This document shows positions 19,712 to 39,519 of a stretch of 64,000 nucleotides of DNA, piece by piece. Origin of the DNA: an uncultured bacterium (GTDB taxonomy: Bacteria; Planctomycetota; UBA8108; UBA1146); contig CAJXMG010000001.1 in assembly GCA_913056395.1 (NCBI GenBank), positions 119,550 to 183,549 of the forward strand, given 5' to 3'. Made by a program: the position numbers and the translations under genes. The notes under the pieces were generated by a model. That model ran no database searches. It was not told the DNA's origin and was given only the letters and a program-made list of their open reading frames with translations. The first letter of the stretch is position 1; each line of letters starts with the position of its first letter.

Positions 19712-19765
19712 GGGGATGGCTGCCGAAGGGGAATCGGCAGCCGGGGAATCGACAGGGGGACAGAG

Positions 19766-20029
19766 ATGATTTCATTACTGGATCAACACGTGGATTCAAA
19801 CCACCGGCAGTCACAGGTGGTCAGCAGAATTCGGGAATTTTTGCAGACAGGTCAGCACCTTGACGAAGCTCCGGAGTCGGTGCTGAGAGACCTCGACGAG
19901 CTGTGGGATCGCGTTCAGCGCGCCCGTGCTCGCGGCGTTGAAGGCGTGCGACTGTCGAAAGGTTTGCACCGGGCTGCACGCGCCAGGGCATTTGGAAAGT
20001 TCGCCGCTCCGACCCTCGACCACATTTGA
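19766..20029 (+). CDS. Small hypothetical ORF between mraZ and rsmH
   Basis: 87-aa ORF that fills the 333-nt gap. No recognisable domain; may not be a real gene. Confidence 0.25.
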   Translation: MISLLDQHVDSNHRQSQVVSRIREFLQTGQHLDEAPESVLRDLDELWDRVQRARARGVEGVRLSKGLHRAARARAFGKFAAPTLDHI

Positions 20030-20044
20030 TTCGGGTCGTTCAGG

Positions 20045-20953: not shown

Positions 20954-21237
20954 GTCGCAAATCCCTGTGGATGCTGCTTTGGGTTGTCGTCGCCGGTTTT
21001 GGAATGTCATGGGTGGGAATCCAGAAGATGGTCTTGAAAAGAGATGCTTACAAAGGCGCGGATCAACTGAAGGAAACCCAAAGGCTTAATGAGGAGTTGC
21101 AGATCGAAAAGATCCTTCTTGAATCAGCCCTCGTCAGGGAGATGCGACAGGCAGAATTGCGAGAGGCTCTGGTACTCGTGGGGAACTCATTCAGTGAGCA
21201 GGGAGTTCCAACACAGGGAAACTCGGAAGAGCAATGA
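20950..21237 (+). CDS. ftsL: FtsL-like small bitopic division protein
   Basis: 95 aa with an N-terminal TM (LWMLLWVVVAGFGMSWV) followed by a coiled-coil. ATGA overlap with the rsmH stop; sits in the canonical ftsL slot. Confidence 0.5.
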   Translation: MSRKSLWMLLWVVVAGFGMSWVGIQKMVLKRDAYKGADQLKETQRLNEELQIEKILLESALVREMRQAELREALVLVGNSFSEQGVPTQGNSEEQ

Positions 21238-21282
21238 GTGGAAAAATAAATACGCCCGGATAGAGAGTGAACAATCAGTTAA

Positions 21283-23355
21283 ATGATTAGACGAGATCAA
21301 ATCGACGAAGAGACTCAGGGGTTCCCGGTAAATATGTCAGCAGAACCACGCGATGATATGAAACAGCCAAACAAACTCAGCAACATCACTTTTGCAATCA
21401 TCCTGACAGGTTTAACACTGGTATTGGTGAGGTCAGCATGGATGCAACTTTTTCAAAGGGACTATTATCGTGGGGTCCAAGTCGAGGCTCAGTCTCGGAT
21501 TTCTCATGGTGGGGAAAAGCGGGGGCGGATTCTGGATCGAAATGACCAGCCCATGGCCATGGATCGCGAAATCCACAGACTGGCCATCGACCCCGATCAT
21601 TTGTCACACTGTTTTGAATTGAACCTTCAGGATCAAATTCAGCCGAAGAAGTTGTCAGTGGAGGCGATCATCCAAAAACTGGAGAACTCAGGAATTCAAT
21701 TTCTGAGTGATCGTCAGGTGCTGATCGAAGAACTATCTGCAGACATCCAGCACAGCCTTAAAGTACGAAGGAACGGAAAAGGAAATAGAATTAGGTATCG
21801 CCGTTTGGGCGATTTGGCGCCCGATGCGAAGCGTGGAATTCTTGATCAGAGCCTGTCAGAAATCAGCCGTGAATTGGGCAAATGGGTTTTCCCAAAAGTG
21901 GAAACAGAGATGGTCCGGTTTTACCCCTTTGGCACTGTAGGATCGACTTTGATCGGTGAAAAGGGCCGCAGTGAGGGCCTCTGGGGAATGGAGAGTCAGT
22001 TCAATCCAACTTTGCGCAAGGTGAAGAGCCTTGTCAAAGAGCAGATGGCACCCGGGGGCAAGAAGATGGCTCCCAATCGTGAGGCGATCCCGGGCCAGCA
22101 GGGGACAGATGTCCACACCACCATCGACATGACACTGCAGGCAGAACTGGAACATCTCTGCTTTGAAAATTATCAACGAGCCTCGGCGCGTAGTGTTTCC
22201 GCAATGGTGGTCGACCCCTTCACCGGTGAAACTCTGGCCATGGCAACAGTTCCAGGATTGCAGCGAGGTCAAATGACCGAGTTTGCCAATCAGGATCTGA
22301 TCAATGGGAGCCGTGAAGGAATGGAAACGGCTTACGGCCTGATGGCGCGCCTCCAGCGGGTTTCATTGGAACCGGGATCCGTGGTCAAGCCCCTCATTCT
22401 GGCGAGGGCTCTCGAATTGGGAATCCCCCTCGACCTTCCATTGGCTGTGAGGTCCAAAAACCAGAGGATCGATGGTCGCCGTCGACTTTTCCGTGACAGC
22501 AGCCTGCTGAAGGAGAAGACTCCGGAAGGTGCGGTCGTCTTCTCCAGCAACATTGGTATGGTTCTGCTGGGTGTGAAGCATATGAAGAAAAGTGACGTCG
22601 AATCGATTCTCAGGAGATTCGGTTTTGGATCGAAAACCGGCATCGAGTTGCCGGGAGAAGAGTTTGGTCAACTGAAGCCACTTTCAAAGTGGAATCGGTT
22701 TTCCTGGGAGTCGGCCTGCTACGGCTATGAAATGATGGTGACCCCGGTCCAGGTGCTCAGAGCCTACATGGCCATCGCCAATGGGGGATACCTTTTGGAG
22801 CCGACACTACTCAAGAAATCGCAAGATTCACCTGCACCGATCATCCTCAGTGAGAAGGTCGCAGCGGAGTGTCGTCGCGTCCTGGGCCGGGCAGTCTCTG
22901 ACGGTACCGGCAGGCACATCGTCCATCATGTGAGCCCCGAATTGCGGGAGTTGATCCGCGAGGGGAAGTTGCAGATGGCGGGGAAAACCGGCACCACCAA
23001 GTTGATGGACCCGGAAACAGGCCTCTATTCCGAGGACAAGTACAACTCGAGCTTCGTTGGATTTGCACCGGTCGACAATGCCCGCTTCCTGACAGTGGTC
23101 CTCGTGGAGGAGCCTACTCCAGAGGACAACATGTACTACGCCTCCAAATCTGCGGCTCCACTGGGGGCCCAGATCCTGTCGGCGGCCATGAATCTGCCCG
23201 GATTTAACCCCTTTTCGGTGGCATACGATGATCCGCGGGATTCTGAACCATTGATCTTGGCGACCCATGAATCGGCCGATAACCTGAGTCCTTCGGGGAG
23301 TCAGGTGGAGCCGGCCCGGGATTCCGGGCAGGAGGGGGAGCCGGATCGGTGGTAA
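21283..23355 (+). CDS. ftsI: Penicillin-binding protein, class B transpeptidase (FtsI/PBP3-like)
   Basis: N-terminal TM, SAMVVDPFTGETLAMATVP, SxxK (GSVVKP), SxN (FSSNIG) and KTGT (GKTGTTK) motifs. The true start could be a downstream Met. Confidence 0.8.
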   Translation: MIRRDQIDEETQGFPVNMSAEPRDDMKQPNKLSNITFAIILTGLTLVLVRSAWMQLFQRDYYRGVQVEAQSRISHGGEKRGRILDRNDQPMAMDREIHRLAIDPDHLSHCFELNLQDQIQPKKLSVEAIIQKLENSGIQFLSDRQVLIEELSADIQHSLKVRRNGKGNRIRYRRLGDLAPDAKRGILDQSLSEISRELGKWVFPKVETEMVRFYPFGTVGSTLIGEKGRSEGLWGMESQFNPTLRKVKSLVKEQMAPGGKKMAPNREAIPGQQGTDVHTTIDMTLQAELEHLCFENYQRASARSVSAMVVDPFTGETLAMATVPGLQRGQMTEFANQDLINGSREGMETAYGLMARLQRVSLEPGSVVKPLILARALELGIPLDLPLAVRSKNQRIDGRRRLFRDSSLLKEKTPEGAVVFSSNIGMVLLGVKHMKKSDVESILRRFGFGSKTGIELPGEEFGQLKPLSKWNRFSWESACYGYEMMVTPVQVLRAYMAIANGGYLLEPTLLKKSQDSPAPIILSEKVAAECRRVLGRAVSDGTGRHIVHHVSPELRELIREGKLQMAGKTGTTKLMDPETGLYSEDKYNSSFVGFAPVDNARFLTVVLVEEPTPEDNMYYASKSAAPLGAQILSAAMNLPGFNPFSVAYDDPRDSEPLILATHESADNLSPSGSQVEPARDSGQEGEPDRW

Positions 23356-24800
23356 AGGGGAACGGAATATCGCTGATTGATTCCGCGACTGGGGACCTGC
23401 AAGAGGTTCTCGGTGCACCTTTGCTTTCCGGTTCGCAGACCGACTCCTTCAAATGTCTGACCTGGGATGACCGACAGGCTCCCGGAGATCTCTTCATCGC
23501 CATTCGCGGAACGGTTCATGACGGCGCGGCTTCCATCCCACAAATGCTGGAATTGGGAGTCCGTGGCATCATTTCGGAAAATGAGCCTCCCGCCAATCCG
23601 CCGGCAGATCTGACCTGGTGGCAAGTGGAGAATTCACGGGAGGCTTTCGCCCGACTGGTTCACCACGCCTGGGGTGAGCCCGCCGCGCAGATTCCGGTCT
23701 TTGGCATCACTGGGACCAATGGCAAAAGCAGTACGGTTCATCTGTTGGCTTCGATTCTGGATGTCGCAAACATGAACCCGGGTTGGGTAACGACCGTCGA
23801 TCAAAGGATCGCAGGAGCATGTCGAGAGAGTTCCTGCACCACTCCTTCTGCGGATCAGTTGGCTCTCAGTCTTCGTGAACATGTCGAGTCGGGTGGTCGA
23901 TCGATGGTGTTGGAGATCTCCTCCCATGCCATCCATCAACACCGTGTCACGGGAATTCCGCTGGTCGCTGCCGCTGTGACACAGTTGGGGCGCGACCATC
24001 TCGACTATCACGGAACCGTCGAAGAGTACCATGCCGTCAAAAAGGAACTTCGCCATCAAGTCAGGGAGGGGGGCGTTTTCCTGCTTCCCGATCACGTAGA
24101 CAAGGACACGGTGGCATTCGAGGATCTTTTTACGGGCCGACGCTGGACCGGCAAGGTTCTTCAACAGAATGCAAAAGGGGTGCGGGCTATCCTTCAGGGT
24201 GCTGATTGGGAGTTCGAACTGAATTGGAACCGGCCTGCACGCCACGATCTTTCGAATGCTTTGTGTGCTACTGTTCTCGCCGATTCCGCAGGGATATCTG
24301 TTGCCTGTATTCGGGAGGGATTGGTGAGTGCCAAGCCAGTTCCCGGTCGGATGGAAGAAGTTTCCCGGGGAGTCTTCGTCGATTATGCGCACACTCCTGA
24401 CGCTCTCGAATCGGCGTTGAAAGTGTGTCGTGAGATTTGCCGTGGAGAATTGAGAGTCCTCTTTGGTTGCGGGGGGGACCGTGATCAGGGGAAGCGATCA
24501 CAAATGGGCAAGGTGGCTGCGGATCATGCGGATGCCATTTTTCTCACCGATGACAATCCCCGATCAGAGTCCTCCGATCAGATCCTTGAGCAGATCCTCG
24601 TCGGTGTGGGGGATCATCCCCGGGTAGAGAAAAATACGGACAGGCGTCAAGCCATCGGGACAGCCCTTCAGAACCTTCGTGAAGAAGACATCCTGTTGAT
24701 CGCCGGAAAAGGTCATGAAACCACGCAGGAGATCAGGGGGGAGAAGTTTCCCTTCGACGACTGTGAAGTGGTCAGGGATTGGCTGGGGGTGACCACGTGA
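23349..24800 (+). CDS. murE: UDP-N-acetylmuramoyl-L-alanyl-D-glutamate--2,6-diaminopimelate ligase
   Basis: Mur ligase P-loop (GITGTNGKSST) and MurE-type N-terminal domain (DSFKCLTWDDRQAPGDLFIAIRG). Sits in the dcw slot after ftsI. Confidence 0.8.
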   Translation: MVKGNGISLIDSATGDLQEVLGAPLLSGSQTDSFKCLTWDDRQAPGDLFIAIRGTVHDGAASIPQMLELGVRGIISENEPPANPPADLTWWQVENSREAFARLVHHAWGEPAAQIPVFGITGTNGKSSTVHLLASILDVANMNPGWVTTVDQRIAGACRESSCTTPSADQLALSLREHVESGGRSMVLEISSHAIHQHRVTGIPLVAAAVTQLGRDHLDYHGTVEEYHAVKKELRHQVREGGVFLLPDHVDKDTVAFEDLFTGRRWTGKVLQQNAKGVRAILQGADWEFELNWNRPARHDLSNALCATVLADSAGISVACIREGLVSAKPVPGRMEEVSRGVFVDYAHTPDALESALKVCREICRGELRVLFGCGGDRDQGKRSQMGKVAADHADAIFLTDDNPRSESSDQILEQILVGVGDHPRVEKNTDRRQAIGTALQNLREEDILLIAGKGHETTQEIRGEKFPFDDCEVVRDWLGVTT

Positions 24801-26236
24801 AGCCGATTTCACTTTCAGCCCTTGTTTCCCGATTGCGAACCCCCGTCCAGAGTGGCGACGCTTCCCTGGCGGGAATCGATGTGAAAGTTCACTCCAGCTC
24901 CCACAAGGATGGGGGTGAAGTGACGATCACCGGATTCGCCCTGGACAGCCGGCATGTGAAGCCAGGCTTCGCCTTTCTCGCATTTCAGGGGGACAATTGT
25001 CATGGACTCGATTTTGCTGAACAGGCGATAGCGTCGGGGGCCTGCCTGGCGATCTCTGAACCTGGATACGATCGGGAACTCCCGATACCCCTTTTGGAAA
25101 TCCCGGACCTGCGTCAGGGGTTACGTCACTTGGCTACCGCAGAGCAGGTACCGGCTCCCGGCAAGCCCAAAACTGTAGCGGTCACCGGGAGTGTTGGAAA
25201 AACGACGACCTGTCAACTGGGGTCTGCATTGAGTAGCAGTCTCTACTCGACCCACTCGCCCAGAAACTCTTTCAATAATTTCCTCGGCGTCCCCATCACC
25301 ATTCTCGAAGCCTCCGCAGAGACAGAAGTTCTGTGGCTGGAGATGGGAACCAACGAGCCCGGCGAAATTTCGGGATTGGCAGCGATGGGGCAACCGGACA
25401 TTGCGGTGGTTACCGCAGTGGGGGCGACCCATCTGGAGAAGTTGCAGAGTACCGAAGGTGTTTTCCGGGAAAAATTTTCCCTCTTTGATCAGGCCGGAAT
25501 TCAAAGGGCTGTTGCCCCGATTCAATATCGATTTGATTCGATGCCTGTGCCCTGTTGGTGGACAGGGCCGGGAGGAGATGTGGAAATCCAGCCGATTATA
25601 TCCTTGCCGGGAAGGTATCGTTTCGAGCATCGCCCTCAAGGTTTGATCTTCGAATTCGAAACAACGTTACAGGGAACAGGTTCACTTCGCTGTCTCGAGT
25701 CTGCGATCACCGTGGCGTTGGAGTTGGGGATTCCTGTCGAAAAAATACGTGCTTCAACTCCACTCCTCGAGCTTCCTCGCCTTCGCCAGGAACTGTATTC
25801 CATCGATGGTGTGGAGTTGGTGCTCGATTGTTACAACGCTTCACCCCCTTCCGTTGAGGGGGCAATCGCAGACTTAAGTTCCACTTCTGCTTCCCGCAAA
25901 ATGGCTGTCCTCGGCACCATGGAGGAGTTGGGAGCCGACGAGGCGGAATACCATCGGCAAATGGGACAGGCTTGTGCCAATGCGGGACTCGACCATCTTT
26001 GGTGTGTGGGGCGAGGCGCACAGTGGTTGCATGAAGGGGCCCAATCTGCGGGTGGGGCGTCTTCAATCCTTTCCAGAGATGATCACGGTTTGGCCTGCCT
26101 CCTATCAGAGTTGCAGTCTGGGGACCGAGTGCTCTTCAAGGCTTCCAGAAAGGAAGCTCTCGAATCTCTTGCTCATGATTTAAAGAATCGAATGGAAGAG
26201 CGGCTTGCCATGGCGAAGGGGGGACCCCAGGAATGA
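24779..26236 (+). CDS. murF: UDP-N-acetylmuramoyl-tripeptide--D-alanyl-D-alanine ligase
   Basis: FALDSRHVKPGFAFLAFQGDNCHG N-domain and P-loop (VTGSVGKTTT). Start is TTG 24779, or GTG 24797 which overlaps the murE TGA as GTGA. Confidence 0.8.
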   Translation: MAGGDHVKPISLSALVSRLRTPVQSGDASLAGIDVKVHSSSHKDGGEVTITGFALDSRHVKPGFAFLAFQGDNCHGLDFAEQAIASGACLAISEPGYDRELPIPLLEIPDLRQGLRHLATAEQVPAPGKPKTVAVTGSVGKTTTCQLGSALSSSLYSTHSPRNSFNNFLGVPITILEASAETEVLWLEMGTNEPGEISGLAAMGQPDIAVVTAVGATHLEKLQSTEGVFREKFSLFDQAGIQRAVAPIQYRFDSMPVPCWWTGPGGDVEIQPIISLPGRYRFEHRPQGLIFEFETTLQGTGSLRCLESAITVALELGIPVEKIRASTPLLELPRLRQELYSIDGVELVLDCYNASPPSVEGAIADLSSTSASRKMAVLGTMEELGADEAEYHRQMGQACANAGLDHLWCVGRGAQWLHEGAQSAGGASSILSRDDHGLACLLSELQSGDRVLFKASRKEALESLAHDLKNRMEERLAMAKGGPQE

Positions 26237-27399
26237 GTTCCTCTACCGAGATGACTTCCATCACTTCTGCAGATGGCCGATTGCAACCGGCCAAACAGAG
26301 AGTGCCGATCTTTGCTTCTCTGGTTTTCTTGTTGATCATCGGATCCATCGCCCTGTTCAGTGCCACCAGTTATCGTTCAGAGGTTCAGCATGATGACGTC
26401 TGGCAGATGTGGGCGGGTCAATTCAGAGGGTACACTCTTGGCCTGCTATTTTTTATGATCGGTTACTTCGTCTCTCCGCGTCGTTGGTTAACCTCGGGAG
26501 CGAGTGTGAGCCTTGCAGTGGTTCTGGTTCTACTTCTTTTGGGAACCAAATTCTCGCCGATGGGGATTGAGAGAAATGATGCCCAGCGTTGGTTAAAGAT
26601 TGGCAGTCTCGTTTTTCAGCCGTCGGAGTTGGCCAAGTTTGTTCTTCCGGTTTTACTTATCTATCTCACTGGGCCGTGGAAGTTTCAGGGCAATCCCCTG
26701 AATCCGCCGAGTAATACTCCCCGGTATATCCTTTCTGTGGGCCTGATTTTCTTCCCCCTGTTTCTTATCCTGATCCAGCCGGATCTCGGAACCACCGTCG
26801 TCGTCGGAGGCCTCTGCCTGATTCCGATTTCCAGATCCCGACGGCTCCGCCGTTTGGTCAGCATGGGTGCGGTCGGACTCATGGCGATCCTCCTTTTGAC
26901 TCAGACTTCCCGATTCCCTGAGTTCGGAGAGCGATTCAGGGCGATCTGGGACCCCCAGTCAGTGGATCAGGTTTGGGCCGGTTTCCAGTCCATCGGCAGT
27001 GGTGGACTCTTTGGCAGGGGGCTTGGTGAAGGCGCAGGGAAATTGGGTTATCTGCCTTCCGCATACAACGATTTCATCTTTGCTGTCTACGCAGAAGAGA
27101 CCGGGTTCGTTGGAGTGACAGTGGTGGTGGTGCTCTTCGGTACGCTGCTGTGGTGTGGCCGCAAGCTCTGGCAGTCACTGGAAGACGATGATCTTTCATT
27201 GCTGGCGATGGTGTTGACTCTGGCCATCACCGGACAGGCCGCATTGAATATCATGGTCAATCTGGCCTTGCTCCCGACCAAAGGAATTGCTTTGCCCTTT
27301 TTCTCCCATGGATCCACGGGATTGGCGGTATTCATGGGCATGTCAGGTGTGCTCTTGGCCCTGACACGATGTCGTGGCAAGGAGGTCTTGCCGGCATGA
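26233..27399 (+). CDS. ftsW: SEDS-family peptidoglycan glycosyltransferase FtsW
   Basis: ~10 TM helices and SEDS motifs (GSGGLFGRGLGEG, LPSAYNDFIFAVYAEETGFVG, LPTKGIALPFFSHGSTG). ATGA overlap with murF. Confidence 0.8.
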   Translation: MSSSTEMTSITSADGRLQPAKQRVPIFASLVFLLIIGSIALFSATSYRSEVQHDDVWQMWAGQFRGYTLGLLFFMIGYFVSPRRWLTSGASVSLAVVLVLLLLGTKFSPMGIERNDAQRWLKIGSLVFQPSELAKFVLPVLLIYLTGPWKFQGNPLNPPSNTPRYILSVGLIFFPLFLILIQPDLGTTVVVGGLCLIPISRSRRLRRLVSMGAVGLMAILLLTQTSRFPEFGERFRAIWDPQSVDQVWAGFQSIGSGGLFGRGLGEGAGKLGYLPSAYNDFIFAVYAEETGFVGVTVVVVLFGTLLWCGRKLWQSLEDDDLSLLAMVLTLAITGQAALNIMVNLALLPTKGIALPFFSHGSTGLAVFMGMSGVLLALTRCRGKEVLPA

Positions 27400-28502
27400 A
27401 TCGCAGAATCCTCATCGTGGGCGGCCATACGGGTGGGCATCTTTATCCGGCGGAGTCTCTCGCCAGAGAGTTGATAGTCGGGGGAGTGGGAACTCCGGTA
27501 TTGCTGGATCATCAGCGACCTCTTGAACAACGGGTGTTCAACGATGAAGGAATGGAAAAAGTTCTCGCTCCATGGCATGCAAAGGGGCGATTTGCGTTTG
27601 TCTCCTCCTTGCCAGCCGCCATTAAATTTTTGAGACAGCAGAAGATCTCCGCAGTGGTCGGTTTTGGTGCCTTCCCTTCTGTGATCGCCGGGTTGGCAGC
27701 AAAGTGTCTCAGGATTCCCCTCTATCTTCATGAACAGAACCGGGTGATGGGATTGGCAAACAGGATCCTTGCCCCGCTGGCGGAGAAAGTTTTTCTCTCC
27801 TCTCCACTCGTTTCCCCTTCCAGAAATCTGCGCTCAAAAAGCGCAATTCTGGGTTGCCCGATCCGGCCAGAGTTTCAGCCTTGCGAAGCCCCCGACACAC
27901 CCCTGCGTTGCTTGATTCTCGGCGGAAGTCAGGGAGCGGAAGAGGTCAATCACCGGATTCTTGCTGCCGCAGATTTCCTCAAGCCGGAGTTGAAGCAGAA
28001 TCTCAAGGTCGTTCACATGGCGAGCGAGCCGAACACTCAGCAAGTCAGGAAGGCCTGGAGTGACAAGGGCTTCAGTGCCCGTGTAGAACCCTACCTTCCC
28101 GAGATGTTTAAAGAGATGTCACAATCCCATCTGGTGATCTCGCGAGCGGGGGCATCGACATTGGCGGAGTTGACAGCAGTGGGTCGTGGAGGAATCTTCC
28201 TTCCGTATCAGAATCATGCAGATCAACACCAACTTCATAACGCCCGATTCCTAGAAGAATGGGGTGCCGGAATCGTATTGGATTCTGGCACTACAGCGGA
28301 ACACTTCGCCGAGATTCTGGAAAAAGCATTGTTGAATGGCCTATGGCGCGAGTATTCGAGTCGGGCTGGCGAGTTGGGCCGCCCCCGGGCGGCGACCGCC
28401 ATCAGTGAAACGATTCGTATCCATCTGGACGCACGGGAGGGACGTTCCTTTTCCGATCGTCCTGGAGAGCCAGCCTTGTTACGGAATGAGGTGGAAGCCT
28501 GA
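27369..28502 (+). CDS. murG: Undecaprenyldiphospho-muramoylpentapeptide beta-N-acetylglucosaminyltransferase
   Basis: N-terminal GGHTGGHLYPA motif and a GT28 C-terminal domain (ISRAGASTLAEL). Confidence 0.8.
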   Translation: MSWQGGLAGMNRRILIVGGHTGGHLYPAESLARELIVGGVGTPVLLDHQRPLEQRVFNDEGMEKVLAPWHAKGRFAFVSSLPAAIKFLRQQKISAVVGFGAFPSVIAGLAAKCLRIPLYLHEQNRVMGLANRILAPLAEKVFLSSPLVSPSRNLRSKSAILGCPIRPEFQPCEAPDTPLRCLILGGSQGAEEVNHRILAAADFLKPELKQNLKVVHMASEPNTQQVRKAWSDKGFSARVEPYLPEMFKEMSQSHLVISRAGASTLAELTAVGRGGIFLPYQNHADQHQLHNARFLEEWGAGIVLDSGTTAEHFAEILEKALLNGLWREYSSRAGELGRPRAATAISETIRIHLDAREGRSFSDRPGEPALLRNEVEA

Positions 28503-29185
28503 TGGGTGCGTTGATCCGCTGGACTCTGGTGCTGGGAATACTCTTTTTCGGGGTCAGTGGAACCATCGATTGGTGGACTCCCGTGGTCGTGCCTTCGTCC
28601 AATGCCATCAGTGATCGCTCCGTTTCAAGAGTCGATCTAGTTTGGGTTTCCGATTCCGGGACCGGTGAGGTTTCGACGGAGCGTGGGGAACAACGAGAGA
28701 TTCTTCCGGAAAGGCTGGAACCCGGGCCGGGTCAATATCGGGGAGGGATCGTCGATCTTGATGAACCTTCAGATCCCATGATTTCCGGGGGCCGTCAGCA
28801 AACGCAATCGAGGGTCTATTCCGTTCAGCAGGGGGACACACTGGGAGAGATCGCTCAGCGATTTTTGGGCTCTGTGGGGGTTGGCACCCGAAAGCTCCGA
28901 GAACTGAATCCCGAGATTCCCGAGAACGGCATGATCAGGGTCGGGCAGGAATTGTTGATTCCAGCGGTAGTTTCCACGCCTTCTCCAAAGGCTCCCCCGG
29001 TTCAGACACAAACACCGATTTCACCCAGGATTCATGTGGTTCAGGAGGGCGATACCCTCTCCGCAATTACCCGCAAATATTTGGGGCATGAAAACTTCAG
29101 CGAGATTCTGAGTGCCAACCGGGATATCCTCTCCGATCCGAACCAACTCAAGCCAGGTTTGAGATTGAGGATTCCGAATGATTGA
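28502..29185 (+). CDS. Membrane-anchored protein with two LysM domains
   Basis: N-terminal TM (LIRWTLVLGILFFGVSG). Two LysM repeats (YSVQQGDTLGEIAQRFLG...LNPEI; HVVQEGDTLSAITRKYLG...ANRDIL). TGATG overlap with the murG stop, and an 8-nt overlap with the murC start. Confidence 0.7.
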   Translation: MGALIRWTLVLGILFFGVSGTIDWWTPVVVPSSNAISDRSVSRVDLVWVSDSGTGEVSTERGEQREILPERLEPGPGQYRGGIVDLDEPSDPMISGGRQQTQSRVYSVQQGDTLGEIAQRFLGSVGVGTRKLRELNPEIPENGMIRVGQELLIPAVVSTPSPKAPPVQTQTPISPRIHVVQEGDTLSAITRKYLGHENFSEILSANRDILSDPNQLKPGLRLRIPND

Positions 29186-30617
29186 ATCCCATGAGAGGCG
29201 CACAAGGATGCCGGCACAGAAAAACCAAGGGACTGATTCTCCTCAAAATGAGTGGATTCATGTCATTGGTGTCGGCGGCAGTGCGACCCGAGGTTTGGCC
29301 TGCATGCTTCGTCGCCAAGGGCATCCCGTTTCTGGCAGTGATCAGGATCCCGATTCCCGGAGTATTCTGGAAGAACATGGGGTGATCTTCTACGAAGGCC
29401 ATGCCGCTTCAAACCTAGCTCAAGAAGTGCAGACGGTCGTTCATACCCGTGCAATTCACCCTTCCAACCCGGAGTTGCTGGAGGCTCACAAGAGGTCGGG
29501 AGTAAAGATCTACACCTACAGCGAATATCTGGGTTTGATCTCCGAACGCCTGTCGACGATCGCAGTGGCGGGAACCCACGGGAAAACCTCTACCACGGCC
29601 TGTTTGTTCAGTGTTTTTCAGGCTGCAAAAAGGGATCCTTCCCTGATCGTGGGGGGAGAGGTGGTCCAGATTCAAGCCGGTTGGCATCAAGGAGAGGGAA
29701 CCGAGTTTCTGGTTGAGGCTTGCGAGTTTGACAAGGCGTTCCTCGACCTGAAGCCAAAGGCTGCAATCATCACCAATGTGGATTTGGATCACCCCGAGAT
29801 CTACAAAGATCTCGAATCGGTGAGGCAAACTTTCCGTGAATTTCTCGCCAATCTTTCTGACGGTTCCTGGGTGGTTTGCCCCATCGAGGTCAAGGAGGCT
29901 CTCAAAGTCGACGATCGACTGAGGTGGCGTACCTTCGGTATGGAAAACAATGCAGATTTGCAGCTGAAGGAAAGTGTCAGTACTGCAGGCTCTACAAAGG
30001 TTCTGTGGAGTTGGGCAGACGGCAGGGTGTTTTCTGCCACCCTCAATGTTCCCGGTGCCCACACCAGATCCAATGCTTCCGCGGTGGTGGCGCTGGCGGA
30101 TGCCCTGAATATCTCATCTGAAGAGATGGCCCGCGGCCTTGAAAACTACCGGGGAGTTTGCCGGAGATTTGAGAAGCGAGAAATTCTCCCGGGGATTGAG
30201 TGGATCGAAGACTATGCGCATCATCCAGAAGAGGTTCGTGCCACGCTGGAGACCGCTCGGGAGGTCTACCCCCATCAGCGACTTCACGCACTTTTCCAAC
30301 CGCATCAGGCGACTCGATTGAGTGCCTTCAGTAAAGGCTTTGCTGAGGAGTTGTCCCGAGCAGATCAGGTGACTCTTTTGCCAATTTTTTCAGTTCGTGA
30401 AGAATTAGACCAGTTTCCAGAGGACCTTGTCGATCAACTGGCTTTGAAAATCCGTCAAAAGGGCAAAGAGTGTCAGGTCACGGATTTTGAAAAAGCGGTT
30501 TCAGAATTGCCCAAACATCTCCAATCAGGAGATGTACTGATCTCCATCGGTGCAGGGAATGTGTACCAGGTTGGTAATCTCGTTCGAGAGAACCAGCGCA
30601 GGCAGGTGACACAATGA
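29178..30617 (+). CDS. murC: UDP-N-acetylmuramate--L-alanine ligase
   Basis: IHVIGVGGSATRGLA (MurC N-terminal Rossmann) and P-loop (VAGTHGKTSTT). Confidence 0.8.
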   Translation: MIESHERRTRMPAQKNQGTDSPQNEWIHVIGVGGSATRGLACMLRRQGHPVSGSDQDPDSRSILEEHGVIFYEGHAASNLAQEVQTVVHTRAIHPSNPELLEAHKRSGVKIYTYSEYLGLISERLSTIAVAGTHGKTSTTACLFSVFQAAKRDPSLIVGGEVVQIQAGWHQGEGTEFLVEACEFDKAFLDLKPKAAIITNVDLDHPEIYKDLESVRQTFREFLANLSDGSWVVCPIEVKEALKVDDRLRWRTFGMENNADLQLKESVSTAGSTKVLWSWADGRVFSATLNVPGAHTRSNASAVVALADALNISSEEMARGLENYRGVCRRFEKREILPGIEWIEDYAHHPEEVRATLETAREVYPHQRLHALFQPHQATRLSAFSKGFAEELSRADQVTLLPIFSVREELDQFPEDLVDQLALKIRQKGKECQVTDFEKAVSELPKHLQSGDVLISIGAGNVYQVGNLVRENQRRQVTQ

Positions 30618-31513
30618 AACCGCCAACCAACATTCAGGAAAACAAATCGATGGGGGACCTGACGTGGTTCCGCAGTGGTGGTAACGCCAGGTTTTACCTG
30701 TCTCCTTCTTCTGAAGAAGAATTGATAGAGGCCACCAAGTGGGCTTTCCGTGAAGAAGTGCCTTTTCACCTCATGGGCTTGGGGGCCAACTCTCTCTTTC
30801 CGGATGACGGTTATCCCGGTTTGATTCTCCACATGGTCAGGTTTCGACAGAGAGGGGAGCACTATCGAAGTTGCACTCCATCGGTGGTGGAGGTCGATGC
30901 CGGAATCAATCTCGAAAATCTGGTGAAAAAATTGAACGAGGCCGGTCTCGGTGGTTTCGAAAAGTTTGTGGGAATTCCCGGTACCGTCGGTGGATCTGTA
31001 TGGGGGAATGCCGGTGCGCAAAATTCCAGCCTGGGAGACCGGGTCGAATCTGTGAAAATTCTCGACTCGCAGGGTGCTGTCCATTGGGTCAAGGGAGATC
31101 AGATTACATGGAGATACCGTTCCTCCGGCTTGGGAAACCGAATCATTCTTGCTGCACGATTCCAGGTTGATCCTGATCAGGAACCGGAAGAGTTGAAAAG
31201 CCGGAGTGCGGGCTTTTTGCAATACAAAAAAAGTGTTCAGCCTTATGACGAAAAGTCGACCGGCTGCATTTTCAAAAACCCCGGTGCGGGTCGCAGTGCC
31301 GGTCAGTTGATCGATGAGTTGAACCTCAAGGGGTTATGCGAGGGGGGAGCACAGGTTTCCGATTTGCACGGGAACTTCATCGTCAACACTGAGCAGACTG
31401 CAACCACGGCGGACGTACTAGCTCTCGTCAGCAAAGTGCAGGAAAAAGTCTACGAAGAAGAGGGCGTGAGATTGGAACGGGAAGTCATCGTCGTCGGGGA
31501 GGGCAGTGAATGA
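30614..31513 (+). CDS. murB: UDP-N-acetylenolpyruvoylglucosamine reductase
   Basis: FAD-binding domain (WFRSGGNARFY, HLMGLGANSLF, GIPGTVGGSVWGNAGA) and a MurB C-terminal region. ATGA overlap with murC. Confidence 0.75.
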   Translation: MKPPTNIQENKSMGDLTWFRSGGNARFYLSPSSEEELIEATKWAFREEVPFHLMGLGANSLFPDDGYPGLILHMVRFRQRGEHYRSCTPSVVEVDAGINLENLVKKLNEAGLGGFEKFVGIPGTVGGSVWGNAGAQNSSLGDRVESVKILDSQGAVHWVKGDQITWRYRSSGLGNRIILAARFQVDPDQEPEELKSRSAGFLQYKKSVQPYDEKSTGCIFKNPGAGRSAGQLIDELNLKGLCEGGAQVSDLHGNFIVNTEQTATTADVLALVSKVQEKVYEEEGVRLEREVIVVGEGSE

Positions 31514-32352
31514 GTACTCCCAATGCTTCTCAGGGCCAATGGAAAACAGCCTTTGCTTTTTTACTGGCTTTTGTCTTTGTGGGACTTGCTCTCAGGCATG
31601 CCCGCAATGAGGTCGACCTTCAACGAGCTGCGGACGCAGGTTCCTGGAGCCTGACTGAAGACAGTTTTCCGGATTGGTTTCCTCAAACATTGACACCGGC
31701 CCTCAAAGAATTACAGCAGATCCCATCCCGAATTCCCCATGACAGCGTTCACTGGCGTGATCACGTTCGAAGTCAATTGTTGGAGAATCCATGGGTTCAT
31801 TCTGTGGGGTCGATTGAACGTCAGATGGGCGAGATTTCTTTCAGCGCAGTTTTGAGAAGACCCGTCGTCGCCGTCCGTTGTCCTGGAGGGCATCTGTTGG
31901 TGACCCCAGAGGGAAGGGTCATCGATTACGAAGAGGGATATACGCTGGATCCTCACTGGAGGATTCCGGAGTATTCATCCATGGGAGGCAATGCAAATGT
32001 GGAGGCAAACCTCCGCACGTTGCCGGCTGGAGATGAGTGGAGTCAGTTGTTGACATTGGTGGGTGACCTCTTCGATCACGGAATCCTCTCTGATCACTCA
32101 GGGTTTGTGGAGGAACTCCGCTGGAGTCCGCAGAATGATGGTGGATTCTGGTATCTGATCTGTGAGGGGGGACTGCGTCTGGCCTGGGGAAAGGCCACCG
32201 GTTCCGGGTCCAGATTGCCGGGGAGCGTGCGGGATAAAATCACTGCCATGAGAAAAGTGATTGCTGACAAGGATCGATTGGTCCCATTGGCAACCTCCAT
32301 CGACGAAATCAGCCTCTTCGCTGGTCCTAACCCGATCGTTACCCAACGCTGA
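31510..32352 (+). CDS. ftsQ: FtsQ/DivIB-like bitopic protein (assigned mainly by position)
   Basis: ATGA overlap with murB. N-terminal TM (WKTAFAFLLAFVFVGLAL) and a ~250-aa periplasmic domain. It is the last coupled gene of the dcw operon. Sequence similarity to FtsQ is weak. Confidence 0.4.
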   Translation: MSTPNASQGQWKTAFAFLLAFVFVGLALRHARNEVDLQRAADAGSWSLTEDSFPDWFPQTLTPALKELQQIPSRIPHDSVHWRDHVRSQLLENPWVHSVGSIERQMGEISFSAVLRRPVVAVRCPGGHLLVTPEGRVIDYEEGYTLDPHWRIPEYSSMGGNANVEANLRTLPAGDEWSQLLTLVGDLFDHGILSDHSGFVEELRWSPQNDGGFWYLICEGGLRLAWGKATGSGSRLPGSVRDKITAMRKVIADKDRLVPLATSIDEISLFAGPNPIVTQR

Positions 32353-32484
32353 ACACCTCCCGGCTACTGACCCTGAATATCACCCCGGATCCCTCCCATA
32401 ACCCCTCGGAGAGGTAGCGTCTGGGAGGCTCGGGGATTATCCTGATAGCTGTTCAGAGGCAAAAAATGTCGAAAAGGAGCCGGA

Positions 32485-32754
32485 GTGTCCAATCCGGATC
32501 GGTATCGCAGGTTGATCGGGGAAGTGGCCCAGGAGATGGGTTACGTTTCCGCCGAAGCTGTCGACGAAGCTTTGTCTGTTCAGGAGAAGCGCCGATCGGA
32601 GGGACTCAAGGTTCCCCTGTTGGGGCAAATCCTGGTTGAGCTGAATCATTTGACCCCGGAACAACTGCAACAACTGATTGAAGTGATCTACCCCGTCGAG
32701 GAAGACGGGGGCGAAGATCCAGATCCCCCCTCAGAGAGCGGTGAGGAAGACTGA
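32485..32754 (+). CDS. Small acidic protein with a tandem MshEN/GspE-N-like motif
   Basis: 89 aa. RRLIGEVAQEMGYVSAEAVDEALSVQ and LLGQILVELNHLTPEQLQQLIEV fit the MshEN pattern RLGxxLxxxGxLxxxxLxxALxxQ. Its stop overlaps the next start as TGATG. Confidence 0.5.
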   Translation: MSNPDRYRRLIGEVAQEMGYVSAEAVDEALSVQEKRRSEGLKVPLLGQILVELNHLTPEQLQQLIEVIYPVEEDGGEDPDPPSESGEED

Positions 32755-34772
32755 TGTCCGCAGACGACGGCAAGAAAAAACGCAGAGTACCTGCACCCAG
32801 AAAAAAAGCCGGTGGTGGGGAAAGCTCCCGAAGAGTTCCACCGAGAAGAGTCGCTCCGGGAAAGAAGCCCGCAACTCCTTCTGAAGAATCGGTCGATTCC
32901 TCCGCTGCAGAAGAAGCCGCAGCAAAGCAAGCCGCAGCCCAGCAAGCCGCAGCCCAGCAAGCCGCAGCAAAGCAAGCCGCAGCAAAGCAGGCCGCAGCAA
33001 AGCAGGCCGCAGCAAAGCAGGCCGCAGCAAAGCAGGCCGCAGCAAAGCAGGCCGCAGCAAAGCAAGCCGCAGCAAAGCAGGCCGCAGCCCAGCAAGCCGC
33101 AGCAAAGCAGGCCGCAGCAAAGCAAGCCGCAGCAAAGCAGGCCGCAGCCCAGCAAGCCGCAGCAAAGCAAGCCGCAGCAAAGCAAGCCGCAGCAAAGCAA
33201 GCCGCAGCGCGTCAGGCTGGTGCTCCCCAAGGAGATACCGCAAAGAAGCCAGCAGTTCCTGCGCGGAAGGCGAGACCTGGCTCGCGGGCACCTGCTGCAA
33301 CGGGATCCGCTGCCAGAGCGGCCTCACCTCGCAAGGGTGCAGGTCGCCGGGGCGCTCCGCCCGCAAGTGCACGTCGCAGGACAGGCGGAGAAGGTGATCT
33401 TGATGAGTTCGAGGGAGATGAGAAAAAATCACCACTGGTGTGGATTCTAGGTGGGGCTGCAGTGGTATTGATCGGTGGATTGGGCATCGTGATGATGTCG
33501 GGTGATGATCCGCCACCTGAGCCAGCCCCCAGCGCCAATACCGCCGCAAACAAACCCAGCCCCAAACAGCAAGAAGAGATTCGTGAGGAGCGGGCCAGAA
33601 AAGCCCTCGACCGGGTCGAGAAAGCAAACTCTGCCAATCCGACCCAACGCTATGAATGTGCAGCCCGATTGCAAATGGTCGCGATCGATTACTCCAATAC
33701 CCAGGCCGGTGCTGAAGCGGGTGAGTTGAGATCCCAACTGCTCAGGACCTGGAATGACGAAGTCGTCGCCGCCTGGAATGCGCTCCGCGGTGATGTATTG
33801 ACCGCATTCAGTGAGGCACGATTTGAGCAGGCTGAGCGCATGCTTGAAGAATTGCCGCCAGTGTTTTTGGGGGCGGCAGACGTTTTGGAGTCTGCATTTG
33901 AAAATGAAATCGATCGACTGCGGAAAGACGCCAAGGCGCAGGCACGTTTCAAGAAACGTCTGGATGAACTCTCGACCAAGGCCGGGGTCTACGCCCGGAA
34001 AGGCTATGAGGACATTGCGATTGCTGTGATCGAAGCCCTCCCCGAAAAAGTGGAGGAAGATGCTCCGGATGTCTGGCGCTTGAAGGAAGAGTTGATCCAG
34101 AAAATTCAGCGTGACGGCCTCGCCTTGTTGATCGAACAGGAATCGGCTCTGGAAGCGGAATTGGCAGAAGCTCGTCGCCTGGAAGAAGAGCGCAAGCAAG
34201 CCGAGCGTATCCGGCGCTGGCAGGAGCTGCGTGACTCTGTCGCATGGAAACCCCTGTTGAGTCGATTCAACCTGTACAACTGGGTGGCCTCCAGCGACAA
34301 GATGTTGGAGAAACCACTCTGGAGGGTTCTCGATCGCAATGGTGCAGGTGTCATGCTGGTGGACAATCGTTCCGGCCGCGATGCCTACACCGGGGTATAT
34401 TCGAACCATTGGGAAGATTATGTCCTCGAGTTTGAGCTCAACCTGAAGGTGGGGGCATTGCGAATTTCCCCGCGAACCCAGGCGAATGCTCAAATGGGGG
34501 CGATCACCGATGGCACTTCACCGCCTTTGGAATTGGGAGACGATTTCCCGAAGAACCGCTGGCTCAAAGTCACCATGGAGGTCAACGGCAACTCGGTGGA
34601 ACTCCGCTACGGCGATTCGGGTAAACGGCTGACCATGGATTCCGAAACAACTCGACTTCCCTCCACCGGTGGTTTTGTGTTTTACGCAGGTGACGGCACC
34701 CGGCTCGAGATTCGTGGAGTCAGGGTCAAGCTGGTCAATGACACCCGTGAGGGGGGAATCTTCGCCAAATAG
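32754..34772 (+). CDS. Bitopic protein: basic N-terminus, ~20 AAAKQ pentapeptide repeats, one TM, ~430-aa C-terminal domain
   Basis: 672 aa. Reads KKKRRVPAPRKKAGG..., then (AAAKQ/AAAQQ) x ~20, then an Arg/Pro-rich linker, a TM (LVWILGGAAVVLIGGLGIVMM) and a helical plus beta-rich C-terminus. Followed by a terminator. Confidence 0.6.
   Translation: MSADDGKKKRRVPAPRKKAGGGESSRRVPPRRVAPGKKPATPSEESVDSSAAEEAAAKQAAAQQAAAQQAAAKQAAAKQAAAKQAAAKQAAAKQAAAKQAAAKQAAAKQAAAQQAAAKQAAAKQAAAKQAAAQQAAAKQAAAKQAAAKQAAARQAGAPQGDTAKKPAVPARKARPGSRAPAATGSAARAASPRKGAGRRGAPPASARRRTGGEGDLDEFEGDEKKSPLVWILGGAAVVLIGGLGIVMMSGDDPPPEPAPSANTAANKPSPKQQEEIREERARKALDRVEKANSANPTQRYECAARLQMVAIDYSNTQAGAEAGELRSQLLRTWNDEVVAAWNALRGDVLTAFSEARFEQAERMLEELPPVFLGAADVLESAFENEIDRLRKDAKAQARFKKRLDELSTKAGVYARKGYEDIAIAVIEALPEKVEEDAPDVWRLKEELIQKIQRDGLALLIEQESALEAELAEARRLEEERKQAERIRRWQELRDSVAWKPLLSRFNLYNWVASSDKMLEKPLWRVLDRNGAGVMLVDNRSGRDAYTGVYSNHWEDYVLEFELNLKVGALRISPRTQANAQMGAITDGTSPPLELGDDFPKNRWLKVTMEVNGNSVELRYGDSGKRLTMDSETTRLPSTGGFVFYAGDGTRLEIRGVRVKLVNDTREGGIFAK
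32916..33209 (+). repeat. Tandem 15-nt DNA repeat (gccgcagcaaagcaa / gccgcagcccagcaa) x ~20
   Basis: Near-perfect head-to-tail 15-mers visible directly in the sequence. They encode the AAAKQ repeats and create spurious ORFs in other frames on both strands. Confidence 0.9.
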
Positions 34773-34821
34773 AAGATGAACGCGGGCTGTCACTCTGGCA
34801 GGCCTGTGCTGAAGAGTCAGA

Positions 34822-34861
34822 GGAGGGGCTGTCACTGTGGCAGTCCCTCCTTTTTCTTTTT
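34822..34861 (+). terminator. Rho-independent terminator
   Basis: GGAGGGGCTG...CAGTCCCTCC hairpin (10 bp, one G-T wobble) followed by TTTTTCTTTT. Confidence 0.6.
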
Positions 34862-36755: not shown

Positions 36756-36761
36756 AAATAG

Positions 36762-38378
<1,617 letters not shown>

Positions 38379-38387
38379 GGGAGTTGC

Positions 38388-39509: not shown

Positions 39510-39519
39510 GAGCCGAACC

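Follow-up and report, generated by a model that had tools for sequence, protein, structure and literature searches.

A double-LysM protein encoded between murG and murC is a fixed part of the dcw operon of one uncultured marine lineage of Planctomycetota and a candidate division accessory factor

In a stretch of 64,000 nucleotides of DNA from a metagenome-assembled genome of an uncultured member of the Planctomycetota (the whole of which we call the window), the dcw operon carries a gene between murG and murC whose 227-aa product combines a predicted transmembrane (TM) helix, a linker and two LysM domains. We regard this gene as a co-translated, fixed part of the dcw operon in an uncultured marine lineage of the phylum, and its product as a candidate division accessory factor. 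The coding sequence starts with an ATG and occupies positions 28502..29185 of the forward strand, as defined by the open reading frame list, Pfam matches, homologues and dN/dS. Its GC and GC3 equal those of the neighbouring genes, and dN/dS is 0.20-0.35 overall, falling to 0.06-0.08 in the first LysM domain, with near-neutral evolution in the linker regions. By these measures the gene is real and under purifying selection.

The putative operon (19205..34772, forward strand) comprises mraZ, rsmH, an ftsL-like gene, ftsI, murE, murF, ftsW, murG, the LysM gene, murC, murB, an ftsQ-like gene and open reading frames of 89 and 672 aa. From rsmH to ftsQ, all junctions are overlaps of 1-31 nt, except that 45 nt separate the ftsL-like ORF from ftsI. 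The only strong terminator-like hairpin follows at 34819-34853, with no strong terminator internally, and no promoter-like site belonging to the LysM gene itself was seen inside the dcw operon. An Rfam scan of the window returned a single tRNA and no rRNA; the phylum was assigned from the names carried by 90%-identity clusters of GroEL, FtsW, MurB and FtsQ.

Both junctions of the LysM gene are tight. Upstream, murG (27369..28502, forward strand; Pfam GT28 N- and C-terminal domains) ends in a TGA (28500-28502) whose last base is also the first base of the LysM-gene ATG (28502), giving exactly the TGATG overlap noted in the preliminary description. The start of murG itself is probably the ATG at 27396 (M10), given that this Met never varies and that the gene calls of homologues give 368 aa; from this start, murG overlaps ftsW by 4 nt. 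An SD-like motif, GAGGTGGA (28488..28495, forward strand), lies within the terminal part of murG, with 6 nt between it and the LysM-gene ATG, where it may direct translation of the LysM gene. The same motif or its variant AAGGTAGA, together described by (G/A)AGGT(G/A)GA, precedes the LysM gene in the divergent loci L003, L005 and L006; it is not kept in the most distant locus, L100. Downstream, murC (29178..30617, forward strand; Pfam Mur ligase domains) has two possible starts. The longest ORF begins at ATG 29178 and overlaps the LysM gene by the 8 nt reported earlier, this ATG arising from the conserved run of codons, Asn-Asp/Glu-stop, that ends the LysM gene. A second ATG in the same frame, roughly 30 nt further downstream (window position 29208), is found in 4/4 sequenced divergent lineages, in each case preceded by an SD-like GAGAGG or GAAAGG (window positions 29193-29198), and gene callers chose the downstream start in L003 and L005. 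The conserved SD-like motif favours 29208, from which there would be no overlap; the two possible starts put the junction at -8 nt or at +22 nt, which is tight either way.

Within the protein, the LysM pair is the best-defined part. The Pfam LysM model (PF01476) matched with a score of 78.9 bits (cut-off 20.9; E=2.6e-22) over residues 106-154 and ~178-225, and the two modules were the sole confident parts of an AlphaFold2 model with a pTM of 0.28 (pLDDT 81-91 across both). LysM1 (residues 103-155; 28808..28966, forward strand) was modelled as a beta-alpha-alpha-beta fold (E103-107/H114-122/H125-135/E150-154; pLDDT 81-89). LysM2 (residues 176-226; 29027..29179, forward strand) was modelled as E176-179/H186-194/H200-205/E221-224 (pLDDT 83-91); it is of a Kbp/YgaU-like subtype, matches NF008399 over residues 173-226 and has an RLRIPN end. 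Alignment showed that both domains keep a GDTL loop motif; as LysM domains they would be expected to bind glycans that contain GlcNAc, such as peptidoglycan or chitin. Between them lies a Pro/Ser/Thr-rich linker (residues 156-175; 28967..29026, forward strand) with 0/20 identities to L005 and a pLDDT of 46-66. Ahead of them, pLDDT falls below 50 across most of residues 26-100, consistent with a flexible linker of ~75 residues; this region holds a P-E/N-R triplet that is conserved in alignments (residues 69-71; 28706..28714, forward strand), followed by a variable, disordered segment (residues 72-102; 28715..28807, forward strand) with indels, only 4/21 identities to L005 and L006 and a pLDDT of 31-38. 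No catalytic or known protein-interaction domain was found in the 227 residues by Pfam, NCBIfam or AlphaFold2.

The N-terminal hydrophobic helix (residues 3-25; 28508..28576, forward strand) is read here as a signal anchor with an N-in/C-out orientation. Kyte-Doolittle hydropathy in a 19-residue window reached 1.78 at the N-terminus only, and AlphaFold2 placed a helix at residues 3-21; together these predictions support the bitopic, two-LysM protein of the preliminary description. The single Arg (R6) ahead of the helix suggests that the N-terminus lies inside. With a dN/dS of 0.06-0.23 the helix equals the LysM domains in conservation, and its invariant residues (L4, R6, W7, V10, L11, L14, G17, G20 and W24) fall on one face, although with four lineages this is a weak statistic (permutation p=0.04). 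Such conservation exceeds the needs of a mere anchor. Directly after the helix, the juxtamembrane motif PxxxP...RSVSxVxxxWxS (residues 27-50; 28580..28651, forward strand) is invariant in four divergent lineages; AlphaFold2 gave it a pLDDT below 50 and no predicted fold, and we propose that it may be a partner-binding segment. The motif looks like the opening two strands of the FN3 repeats of the protein P0252, but an FN3 identity was dropped in view of zero Pfam fn3 matches even at E<=10 and the lack of an AlphaFold2 fold. Searched on its own against 1.84 billion representatives, the N-terminal module (residues 1-102) returned nothing beyond its own family except two fragments and a protein with nine FN3 repeats, and no fusion of this module to a SPOR or other peptidoglycan-binding domain was found among these representatives.

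Searches of 5.8 billion and 1.84 billion proteins placed the full-length family in just 12 protein clusters of 46-100% identity, all metagenomic, so that its description as lineage-specific holds. Far from being absent from the dcw clusters of close relatives, the gene occurs in the order murG-LysM-murC in every family member with a readable context, down to 46% identity in the LysM protein and 54% in MurG. A MurG search of genome contigs gave one close MAG, L001 ('bacterium bin129'). The corresponding MurG-alignment search of metagenome contigs gave distant loci only (MurG 25-37% identity), which we therefore used as a background set and not as a profile of near relatives. In this background, murC comes straight after murG, leaving no space for another gene, in 53/53 loci that have both genes, and a LysM ORF lies within 4 kb in 0/80 loci, in agreement with the earlier statement that no canonical dcw gene belongs in this slot. 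Close kin of the LysM pair also occur outside dcw clusters in Planctomycetota (with lpxD near P0095, anmK and a GH3 gene near P0120, and an EamA gene near P0076), which means that the LysM module itself is not division-specific. Annotation pipelines label the dcw-embedded protein only as 'LysM domain protein' or, wrongly, 'nucleoid-associated protein YgaU'. We found no prior description in the literature of a LysM protein of the Planctomycetota or Phycisphaera dcw cluster.

A second family of bitopic LysM proteins is encoded in the dcw clusters of the deeply diverged Phycisphaerae, including the cultured Algisphaera agarilytica (P0262). Here the gene lies in the order rsmH-LysM-ftsL-like-ftsI in 5/5 loci; the window's own rsmH-ftsL-like-ftsI run has no such insertion, and there is no second LysM ORF anywhere in the 64 kb. 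In both families a short N-terminal tail leads into a TM helix, which is followed by a linker of low complexity, and both are embedded in the dcw cluster. Their LysM domains are of the same two subtypes in collinear order, and hhalign aligned both in order over 122 columns (probability 99.4%, E=8.7e-22); beyond the LysM pair, hhalign detected no homology. They differ in size, the Phycisphaerae proteins having 262-540 aa and sometimes a third LysM domain compared with 227 aa and two LysM domains in the window protein, and at the N-terminus, which reads MTRExK...ISDH in the Phycisphaerae and MGALIRW...IDWW in the window protein. Their dcw slots also differ, rsmH/ftsL-like in the one and murG/murC in the other, and the host lineages are far apart (FtsI ~31% identical). 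The Phycisphaerae proteins are annotated merely as LysM peptidoglycan-binding domain-containing proteins.

Planctomycetota lack FtsZ and FtsA, and their division mechanism is poorly understood, while Phycisphaerae and Planctomycetales retain the remaining dcw genes (PMC12283558). In the planctomycete P. limnophila the dcw genes are mostly non-essential (PMC12283558), and membership of the operon is therefore no proof of a role in division. Against this background we propose, at somewhat less than even confidence, that the window protein is an inner-membrane-tethered peptidoglycan binder that works with FtsW and FtsI, following the logic of FtsN with an architecture like that of YneA. It would share its mRNA with FtsI, MurE, MurF, FtsW, MurG, MurC, MurB and FtsQ, with its translation coupled to theirs, and would insert as a type II (N-in) inner-membrane protein whose flexible ~75-residue periplasmic linker carries the LysM pair. 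The LysM pair would bind the glycan backbone of peptidoglycan, gripping existing or nascent strands, while the conserved face of the TM helix, the juxtamembrane motif or both would dock on the FtsW-FtsI(-FtsQ/L) synthase. The synthase would thereby be coupled to the wall and be localised, retained or modulated at a site of septal or zonal synthesis, which is what FtsN, a TM-linker-SPOR protein, accomplishes in Proteobacteria. What the analysis shows is the architecture, the place in the operon, the conservation of the two, purifying selection and a parallel family linked to dcw in Phycisphaerae; we infer the topology and, from context, the function, namely binding to peptidoglycan, the identity of the partner, whether the effect is positive or negative, and a place in division as against general wall growth.

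The preliminary description had suggested a septal peptidoglycan-binding factor analogous to SPOR/FtsN-type proteins. By guilt by association this role is plausible in a phylum without FtsZ and FtsA, and the septal reading is strengthened by the second, diverged bitopic LysM family in another dcw slot; the likeness does not extend to a SPOR domain or to motifs of FtsN type. E. coli FtsN is bitopic and N-in, and in the periplasm a long disordered linker leads to a C-terminal module that binds peptidoglycan glycan. FtsN and the other SPOR proteins (DamX, DedD) thus resemble the window protein in N-in topology (predicted in our case), linker and C-terminal glycan-binding module, and the proposed logic, in which the state of the peptidoglycan is coupled to FtsWI activity, would be common to both. 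However, the binding fold is SPOR in FtsN and LysM in the window protein, in which no SPOR domain (PF05036) was found at a Pfam E<=0.01 or by NCBIfam. The juxtamembrane motif at residues 27-50 has no similarity to EFtsN, the essential helix in the periplasm with which FtsN activates FtsQLB/FtsWI, and the cytoplasmic tail is only ~6 residues long, whereas the tail of FtsN binds FtsA, which this phylum lacks. The FtsN gene lies outside the dcw operon.

The same features could instead describe a general tether between inner membrane and peptidoglycan, or an envelope-integrity factor, fastening the cytoplasmic membrane to the thin planctomycetal sacculus all over the cell without a specific divisome partner and co-expressed with the operon because demand for it scales with wall synthesis. 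Such a role would fit the absence of a catalytic or known protein-interaction domain, the long flexible linkers, which would suit a spacer, and the similar TM-linker-LysM proteins encoded outside dcw clusters in Planctomycetota. However, conservation of the TM helix and of the juxtamembrane motif goes far past what an anchor needs, and the operon position is strictly kept, in two independent dcw slots of two deep lineages. We consider a general tether possible but rather unlikely.

It is also possible, though we think it unlikely, that the N-terminal segment is removed after Sec export as a signal peptide, in which case the membrane tether would be lost and the mature product would be a soluble periplasmic double-LysM binder instead of a bitopic protein. 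A small-x-Ala site (SNA, SEA, TAA or SSA) is indeed conserved at residues ~33-35, about 5 residues past the hydrophobic stretch. That stretch is ~24 residues long (7-30), which is typical of anchors, and the segment, with its one-sided invariant residues, is among the most conserved parts of the protein, whereas signal peptides normally drift.

The best-characterised protein of similar architecture, YneA of B. subtilis (NF010723), which is also the nearest mechanistic precedent for the proposed role, inhibits FtsW rather than activating it (PMC13396833). Like the window protein, it has one N-terminal TM helix, an extracytoplasmic LysM domain and no catalytic domain; its TM helix binds TM7 of FtsW, and its action also needs peptidoglycan binding by the LysM domain (PMC13396833). 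The window protein might accordingly be imagined as a brake on the SEDS polymerase, its TM helix bound to FtsW and its LysM domains clamping glycan, as a constitutive governor rather than one induced by SOS. This parts list is what the two proteins have in common (PMC13396833), and the NCBIfam YneA model does match the window protein weakly, but the 29 bits fall under the cut-off of 60 and only the LysM part aligns. YneA is half as long (~105 aa as against 227 aa), with one LysM domain and almost no linker in place of two LysM domains and a 75-residue linker. In addition, YneA is LexA-controlled, SOS-induced, transient, inhibitory and encoded outside the dcw operon, whereas the window gene is embedded in the operon; to be co-translated with its would-be targets, and to be stably kept across deep divergence, would not be typical of an inhibitor induced by stress. 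A brake of this kind seems to us quite improbable.

A comparably improbable role is that of a scaffold or regulator of peptidoglycan hydrolases like NlpD, DipM or ActS, in which the LysM domains would target peptidoglycan and the linker motif would recruit a hydrolase, either an amidase or a lytic transglycosylase, to separate the daughter cells. All of these proteins share the use of LysM on a known or candidate division accessory factor: LysM targets DipM-type proteins to peptidoglycan (PMC10336132), and both DipM (PMC10336132) and NlpD are brought to the division site by it. Matches of the window protein to the DipM models (18-29 bits against cut-offs of 740-900) and to ActS (19 against 375) are weak, cover LysM only and fall short of membership. 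DipM, NlpD and ActS are lipoproteins or soluble periplasmic proteins that regulate autolysins and contact the hydrolase through a LytM/M23 domain, whereas the window protein is TM-anchored and gave no match to LytM (Peptidase_M23, PF01551). The operon also contains no hydrolase gene.

In Kbp/YgaU the LysM domain is of the same sequence subtype (ANxxxLxxPxxLxPGxxLRIP) as LysM2; the best match in the PDB was 7pvc (Kbp; E=7.9e-08), and the best in NCBIfam was NF008399. The latter gave 68.4 bits where 134 is the cut-off, and covered profile positions 93-147 (LysM) only, with no BON match. Kbp itself senses K+ in the cytoplasm and has a BON domain but no TM helix, in contrast to the TM-anchored window protein. 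By these comparisons, the window protein is not a member of the FtsN, YneA, DipM/NlpD or Kbp families. That it should be a phage-derived or spurious ORF present in the operon by chance is next to impossible: its match to Phage_tail_X (PF05489; 30.9 bits, residues 104-159) is LysM1 itself, tail protein X having a LysM-like fold, and prophage or foreign insertion is ruled out by composition (GC and GC3 as in the neighbours), by context (dcw neighbours and no phage genes in the window) and by purifying selection on a gene whose place is kept where MurG is only 54% identical.

Returning to the proposal that the protein couples the FtsW-FtsI synthase to the wall, a broader form of it can be stated for the whole phylum, which we offer as speculative and probably not correct as it stands. 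Bitopic LysM proteins would be an unrecognised core part of FtsZ-independent division in peptidoglycan-containing Planctomycetota, with one dcw-wired gene per lineage (murG/murC in the marine clade, rsmH/ftsL in Phycisphaerae). The TM helix and juxtamembrane segment would dock on FtsW/FtsI/FtsQL and the LysM pair would read the wall, supplying the peptidoglycan-dependent signal for activation or positioning that otherwise comes from FtsN and ultimately from FtsZ and FtsA.

Taken together, these results provide a concrete candidate where one might be expected, since replacement or accessory factors for division without FtsZ and FtsA are most naturally sought among the dcw genes that were retained: a membrane-tethered, predicted peptidoglycan binder that is hard-wired into the dcw operon. 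The parallel family in the cultivable Phycisphaerae (Algisphaera agarilytica) makes localisation, interaction and deletion work feasible. If the protein does not act on FtsW/FtsI, it would be one more envelope LysM protein and an ordinary finding. If it does, the design of a TM helix joined to a peptidoglycan-binding domain, already known from FtsN (SPOR) and YneA (LysM), would have been reused, with LysM, as a constitutive part of the divisome.

The LysM gene occupies 28502..29185 on the forward strand, where an ATG start opens the 227-aa reading frame reported in the preliminary description, and the TGATG overlap with murG was also found as described, the last base of the murG stop codon (TGA, 28500-28502) being the first base of the ATG. 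An SD-like motif, GAGGTGGA, lies 6 nt 5' of this ATG (28488-28495, forward strand) and is found again, as GAGGTGGA or AAGGTAGA, at the divergent homologous loci L003, L005 and L006; it is not kept in a further homologous locus, L100. The 8-nt overlap into murC proposed at the other end holds for the longest murC ORF (ATG at 29178), and this ATG arises from conserved Asn-Asp/Glu-stop codons of the LysM gene (AAT GAx TGA). A second in-frame murC ATG is present about 30 nt downstream (29208 in the window) in all four divergent lineages with sequence, preceded in each by GAGAGG or GAAAGG (window 29193-29198), and gene callers placed the murC start at the downstream ATG in L003 and L005. Depending on which start is used, the two genes meet at -8 nt or +22 nt, a tight linkage in both cases.

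The surrounding dcw operon reads mraZ, rsmH, ftsL-like (95 aa), ftsI, murE, murF, ftsW, murG, lysM, murC, murB, ftsQ-like, an 89-aa ORF and a 672-aa ORF, and the same order was seen in L003 and L005. From rsmH to the ftsQ-like gene all junctions overlap by 1-31 nt, except that 45 nt separate the ftsL-like ORF from ftsI, and the single strong terminator-like hairpin within 18.6-35.2 kb is located 3' of the 672-aa gene (34819-34853). The longest murG ORF (27369..27399 region) overlaps ftsW by 31 nt; an invariant Met10 and 368-aa calls in homologues suggest a murG start at 27396, giving an ATGA-type overlap of 4 nt. The cluster (19205..32352) has no mraY or murD between murF and ftsW and no ddl, ftsA or ftsZ, and a Pfam scan of further ORFs across the 64 kb recovered none of them. 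Both the GC content (0.547) and GC3 (0.575) of the LysM gene resemble those of its flanking genes. Compared with four homologues, its dN/dS was 0.20-0.35 overall; LysM1 gave 0.06-0.08 and the TM helix 0.06-0.23, and the two linkers were near neutral. The LysM gene is real, under selection and native to the operon.

The 3' part of the operon has features of its own. The 89-aa ORF (32485..32754, forward strand) directly follows the ftsQ-like gene, in the usual place of ftsA; no other gene of the cluster is as well conserved (91-94% identity, compared to 76-87% for FtsQ), and it scores 36.9 bits against the NCBIfam MshE-related cyclic-di-GMP-binding motif NF053729, slightly below the cut-off of 38. 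It is coupled by a 1-nt overlap to the 672-aa protein gene (32754..34772, forward strand), which takes up the position of ftsZ, a gene missing from this phylum, and is conserved in the homologous locus L004. The encoded protein carries a hydrophobic segment and a long (AAAKQ)n repeat, which produces histone-H1-like matches under the cut-offs; its C-terminal region matches nothing in Pfam. Directly downstream of the operon are two tandem groEL genes followed by dnaJ and grpE (35121..40128, forward strand), and the dcw-groEL-groEL order recurs in L003 and L004. Approximately 5 kb upstream of mraZ, an 855-aa FHA-domain Ser/Thr protein kinase gene (10937..13504, reverse strand) adjoins a gene for a YggS/YlmE-like PLP-binding protein (13504..14361, reverse strand). 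In Gram-positives, YlmE is encoded within the dcw cluster.

Two LysM repeats had been claimed for the protein, and they were supported at the level of both sequence and fold: Pfam identified two PF01476 stretches (78.9 bits, gathering score 20.9, E=2.6e-22), and AlphaFold2, run with the 11-sequence family alignment, modelled two beta-alpha-alpha-beta modules, at residues 103-154 and 176-224 (pLDDT 81-91 in the second), separated by a Pro/Ser/Thr linker of low confidence. The model places a helix at residues 3-21 and contains no domain other than the two LysM modules; pLDDT is below 50 across most of residues 26-100. LysM2 belongs to the Kbp/YgaU sequence subtype, its top PDB match being 7pvc (E=7.9e-08). 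The hydropathy peak is confined to the N-terminus (1.78 across residues 1-19), and since R6 is the only positive charge ahead of the helix, the predicted topology is N-in, C-out, which would place both LysM domains in the periplasm.

Conservation in the N-terminal part is marked. In four lineages, TM-helix residues L4, R6, W7, V10, L11, L14, G17, G20 and W24 are invariant, and their spacing of 3-4 residues puts them on one helix face, a pattern that is suggestive only (permutation p=0.04). A juxtamembrane motif (P27, P31, R39-S-x-S42, V44, W48 and S50; residues 27-50, 28580..28651), again invariant in four lineages, and a P-x-R triplet at residues 69-71 are retained despite predicted disorder. 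The motif resembles the first two (A-B) strands of the FN3 repeats in P0252, a protein with nine such repeats (E=1.2e-08 summed over all nine), yet it has no Pfam fn3 match and no predicted fold, and we regard the apparent likeness as an unexplained resemblance.

A search of 5.8 billion proteins recovered a full-length family of 11 clusters (51-100% identity), beyond which the profile score drops from 345 to 123 bits and matches to the LysM pair alone remain. Tara Oceans marine metagenomes are among the samples in which the family occurs. By exact look-up, GroEL, FtsW, MurB and FtsQ of the window belong to 90%-identity clusters in which the members with names are MAGs labelled 'Planctomycetota bacterium'. 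A filter-free HMM search with residues 1-102 against 1.84 billion representatives added one member, P0250 (46% identical), and in none of its hits was this N-terminal module joined to a different domain. Every family member with readable context, in the window, L001, L003/L004, L005, L006-L011 and L100, has the order murG-LysM-murC; the phylogenetic profiling suggested in the preliminary description, which took absence from close relatives as evidence against a lineage-specific septal factor, therefore does not refute that proposal. Across these loci identity falls as low as 54% for MurG, 63% for MurC and 46% for the LysM protein, which diverges faster than its neighbours chiefly through its linkers. 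Among 80 distant murG loci from a metagenome scan, none had a LysM ORF within 4 kb of murG, and murC directly followed murG in all 53 loci containing both, in agreement with the earlier statement that no canonical dcw gene fills this slot. The slot is normally empty, and the insertion is clade-specific.

The best named matches outside the family were Planctomycetota/Phycisphaerales proteins, and a second dcw-linked family, MTRExK, comprises about 70 clusters by profile search. In its members a conserved N-terminus (MTRExK, TM helix, ISDH) is followed by a low-complexity linker and by two or three LysM domains, and in 5/5 contexts (P0032, P0035, P0079, P0093 and P0262, the last from the cultured Algisphaera agarilytica) the gene is flanked by rsmH on one side and on the other by an FtsL-like ORF of 97-116 aa, after which comes ftsI. 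Profile-profile comparison aligned the two families with 99.4% probability over 122 columns that span the two LysM domains collinearly, and aligned nothing outside the LysM pair; the window protein is not an MTRExK member, as its N-terminus and slot both differ. The host lineages are distant (FtsI 30-33%, RsmH 44-48% identical). In the window, the rsmH/ftsL slot is free of LysM genes and the 64 kb contain no second LysM ORF, so the observed pattern is a single bitopic LysM gene for each dcw cluster, placed in one slot or the other. Placement of LysM genes in dcw clusters is thus seen in two lineages; it may reflect either relocation of one ancestral gene or two separate recruitments. In five Phycisphaerae loci (L012, L013, L017, L018 and L101) the cluster is reduced to rsmH-LysM-ftsL-like-ftsI, with no mur genes after it, and three of these (L017, L018 and L101) have a proteasome-family (HslV-like) gene upstream or nearby and a GcvT-like gene downstream.

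Similar LysM pairs also occur outside dcw clusters, which calls for caution about the dcw association. Two such proteins are from Planctomycetota, P0095, encoded near lpxD, and P0120 (L016, 8001..8768), whose gene adjoins the peptidoglycan recycling genes anmK and GH3 (NagZ-like); the gene for the third, P0076, adjoins an EamA gene. P0120 has a TM-linker-LysM arrangement with a C-terminal LysM motif nearly identical to LysM2 of the window protein (ANRDILSSPEKLQPGMRLRIPE).

Several known systems were considered. The protein belongs neither to the FtsN/SPOR proteins, nor with DipM, NlpD and ActS, nor to Kbp/YgaU, as it lacks their SPOR, LytM and BON domains, respectively; for Kbp/YgaU, the NF008399 score also stays below threshold (68 bits, cut-off 134) and comes from the LysM part only. 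On P0011, the JGI annotation 'nucleoid-associated protein YgaU' is a misnomer that stems from the LysM match. Among experimentally understood proteins, YneA, with its TM helix and LysM domain, is closest in design, but the protein is not a YneA member by score (29 bits, cut-off 60), size or domain count. In Bacillus subtilis, YneA combines a TM helix that binds TM7 of FtsW with one LysM domain, and peptidoglycan binding via LysM is needed to block septal synthesis (PMC13396833).

Beyond the architecture, operon position, conservation and selection documented here, our preferred reading, at somewhat less than even confidence, is that the protein is tethered in the inner membrane, binds peptidoglycan and works together with the FtsW-FtsI synthase, which it would couple to the wall where synthesis takes place, an FtsN-like role performed with YneA-like parts. 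FtsN of Escherichia coli follows the same overall logic with a SPOR domain. A non-specific membrane-to-peptidoglycan tether is rather unlikely, if still a serious alternative. Cleavage to a soluble periplasmic form, which is independent of the other readings and would leave the protein no longer bitopic as first described, is suggested by a conserved small-x-Ala site near residue 35; we consider it improbable, since a membrane anchor would better account for the length and unusual conservation of the single N-terminal hydrophobic stretch. A constitutive YneA-like brake and a hydrolase scaffold lacking LytM are both doubtful, each having a small chance of being correct. A phage remnant or spurious ORF is effectively excluded, the Phage_tail_X match, which spans the same residues as LysM1, reflecting a common fold.

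FtsZ is missing from Planctomycetota, whose division is described as poorly understood; nearly all other dcw genes are retained in Phycisphaerae and Planctomycetales, from which ftsA and ftsB are absent together with ftsZ (PMC12283558). We found no published description of a LysM gene in planctomycetal dcw clusters. The components of the protein are well known; what is new is that they form a constitutive and conserved part of the dcw operon in a phylum without FtsZ, in two lineages and two slots. On the strength of genomic context, the LysM protein is a good testable lead, especially via Algisphaera.
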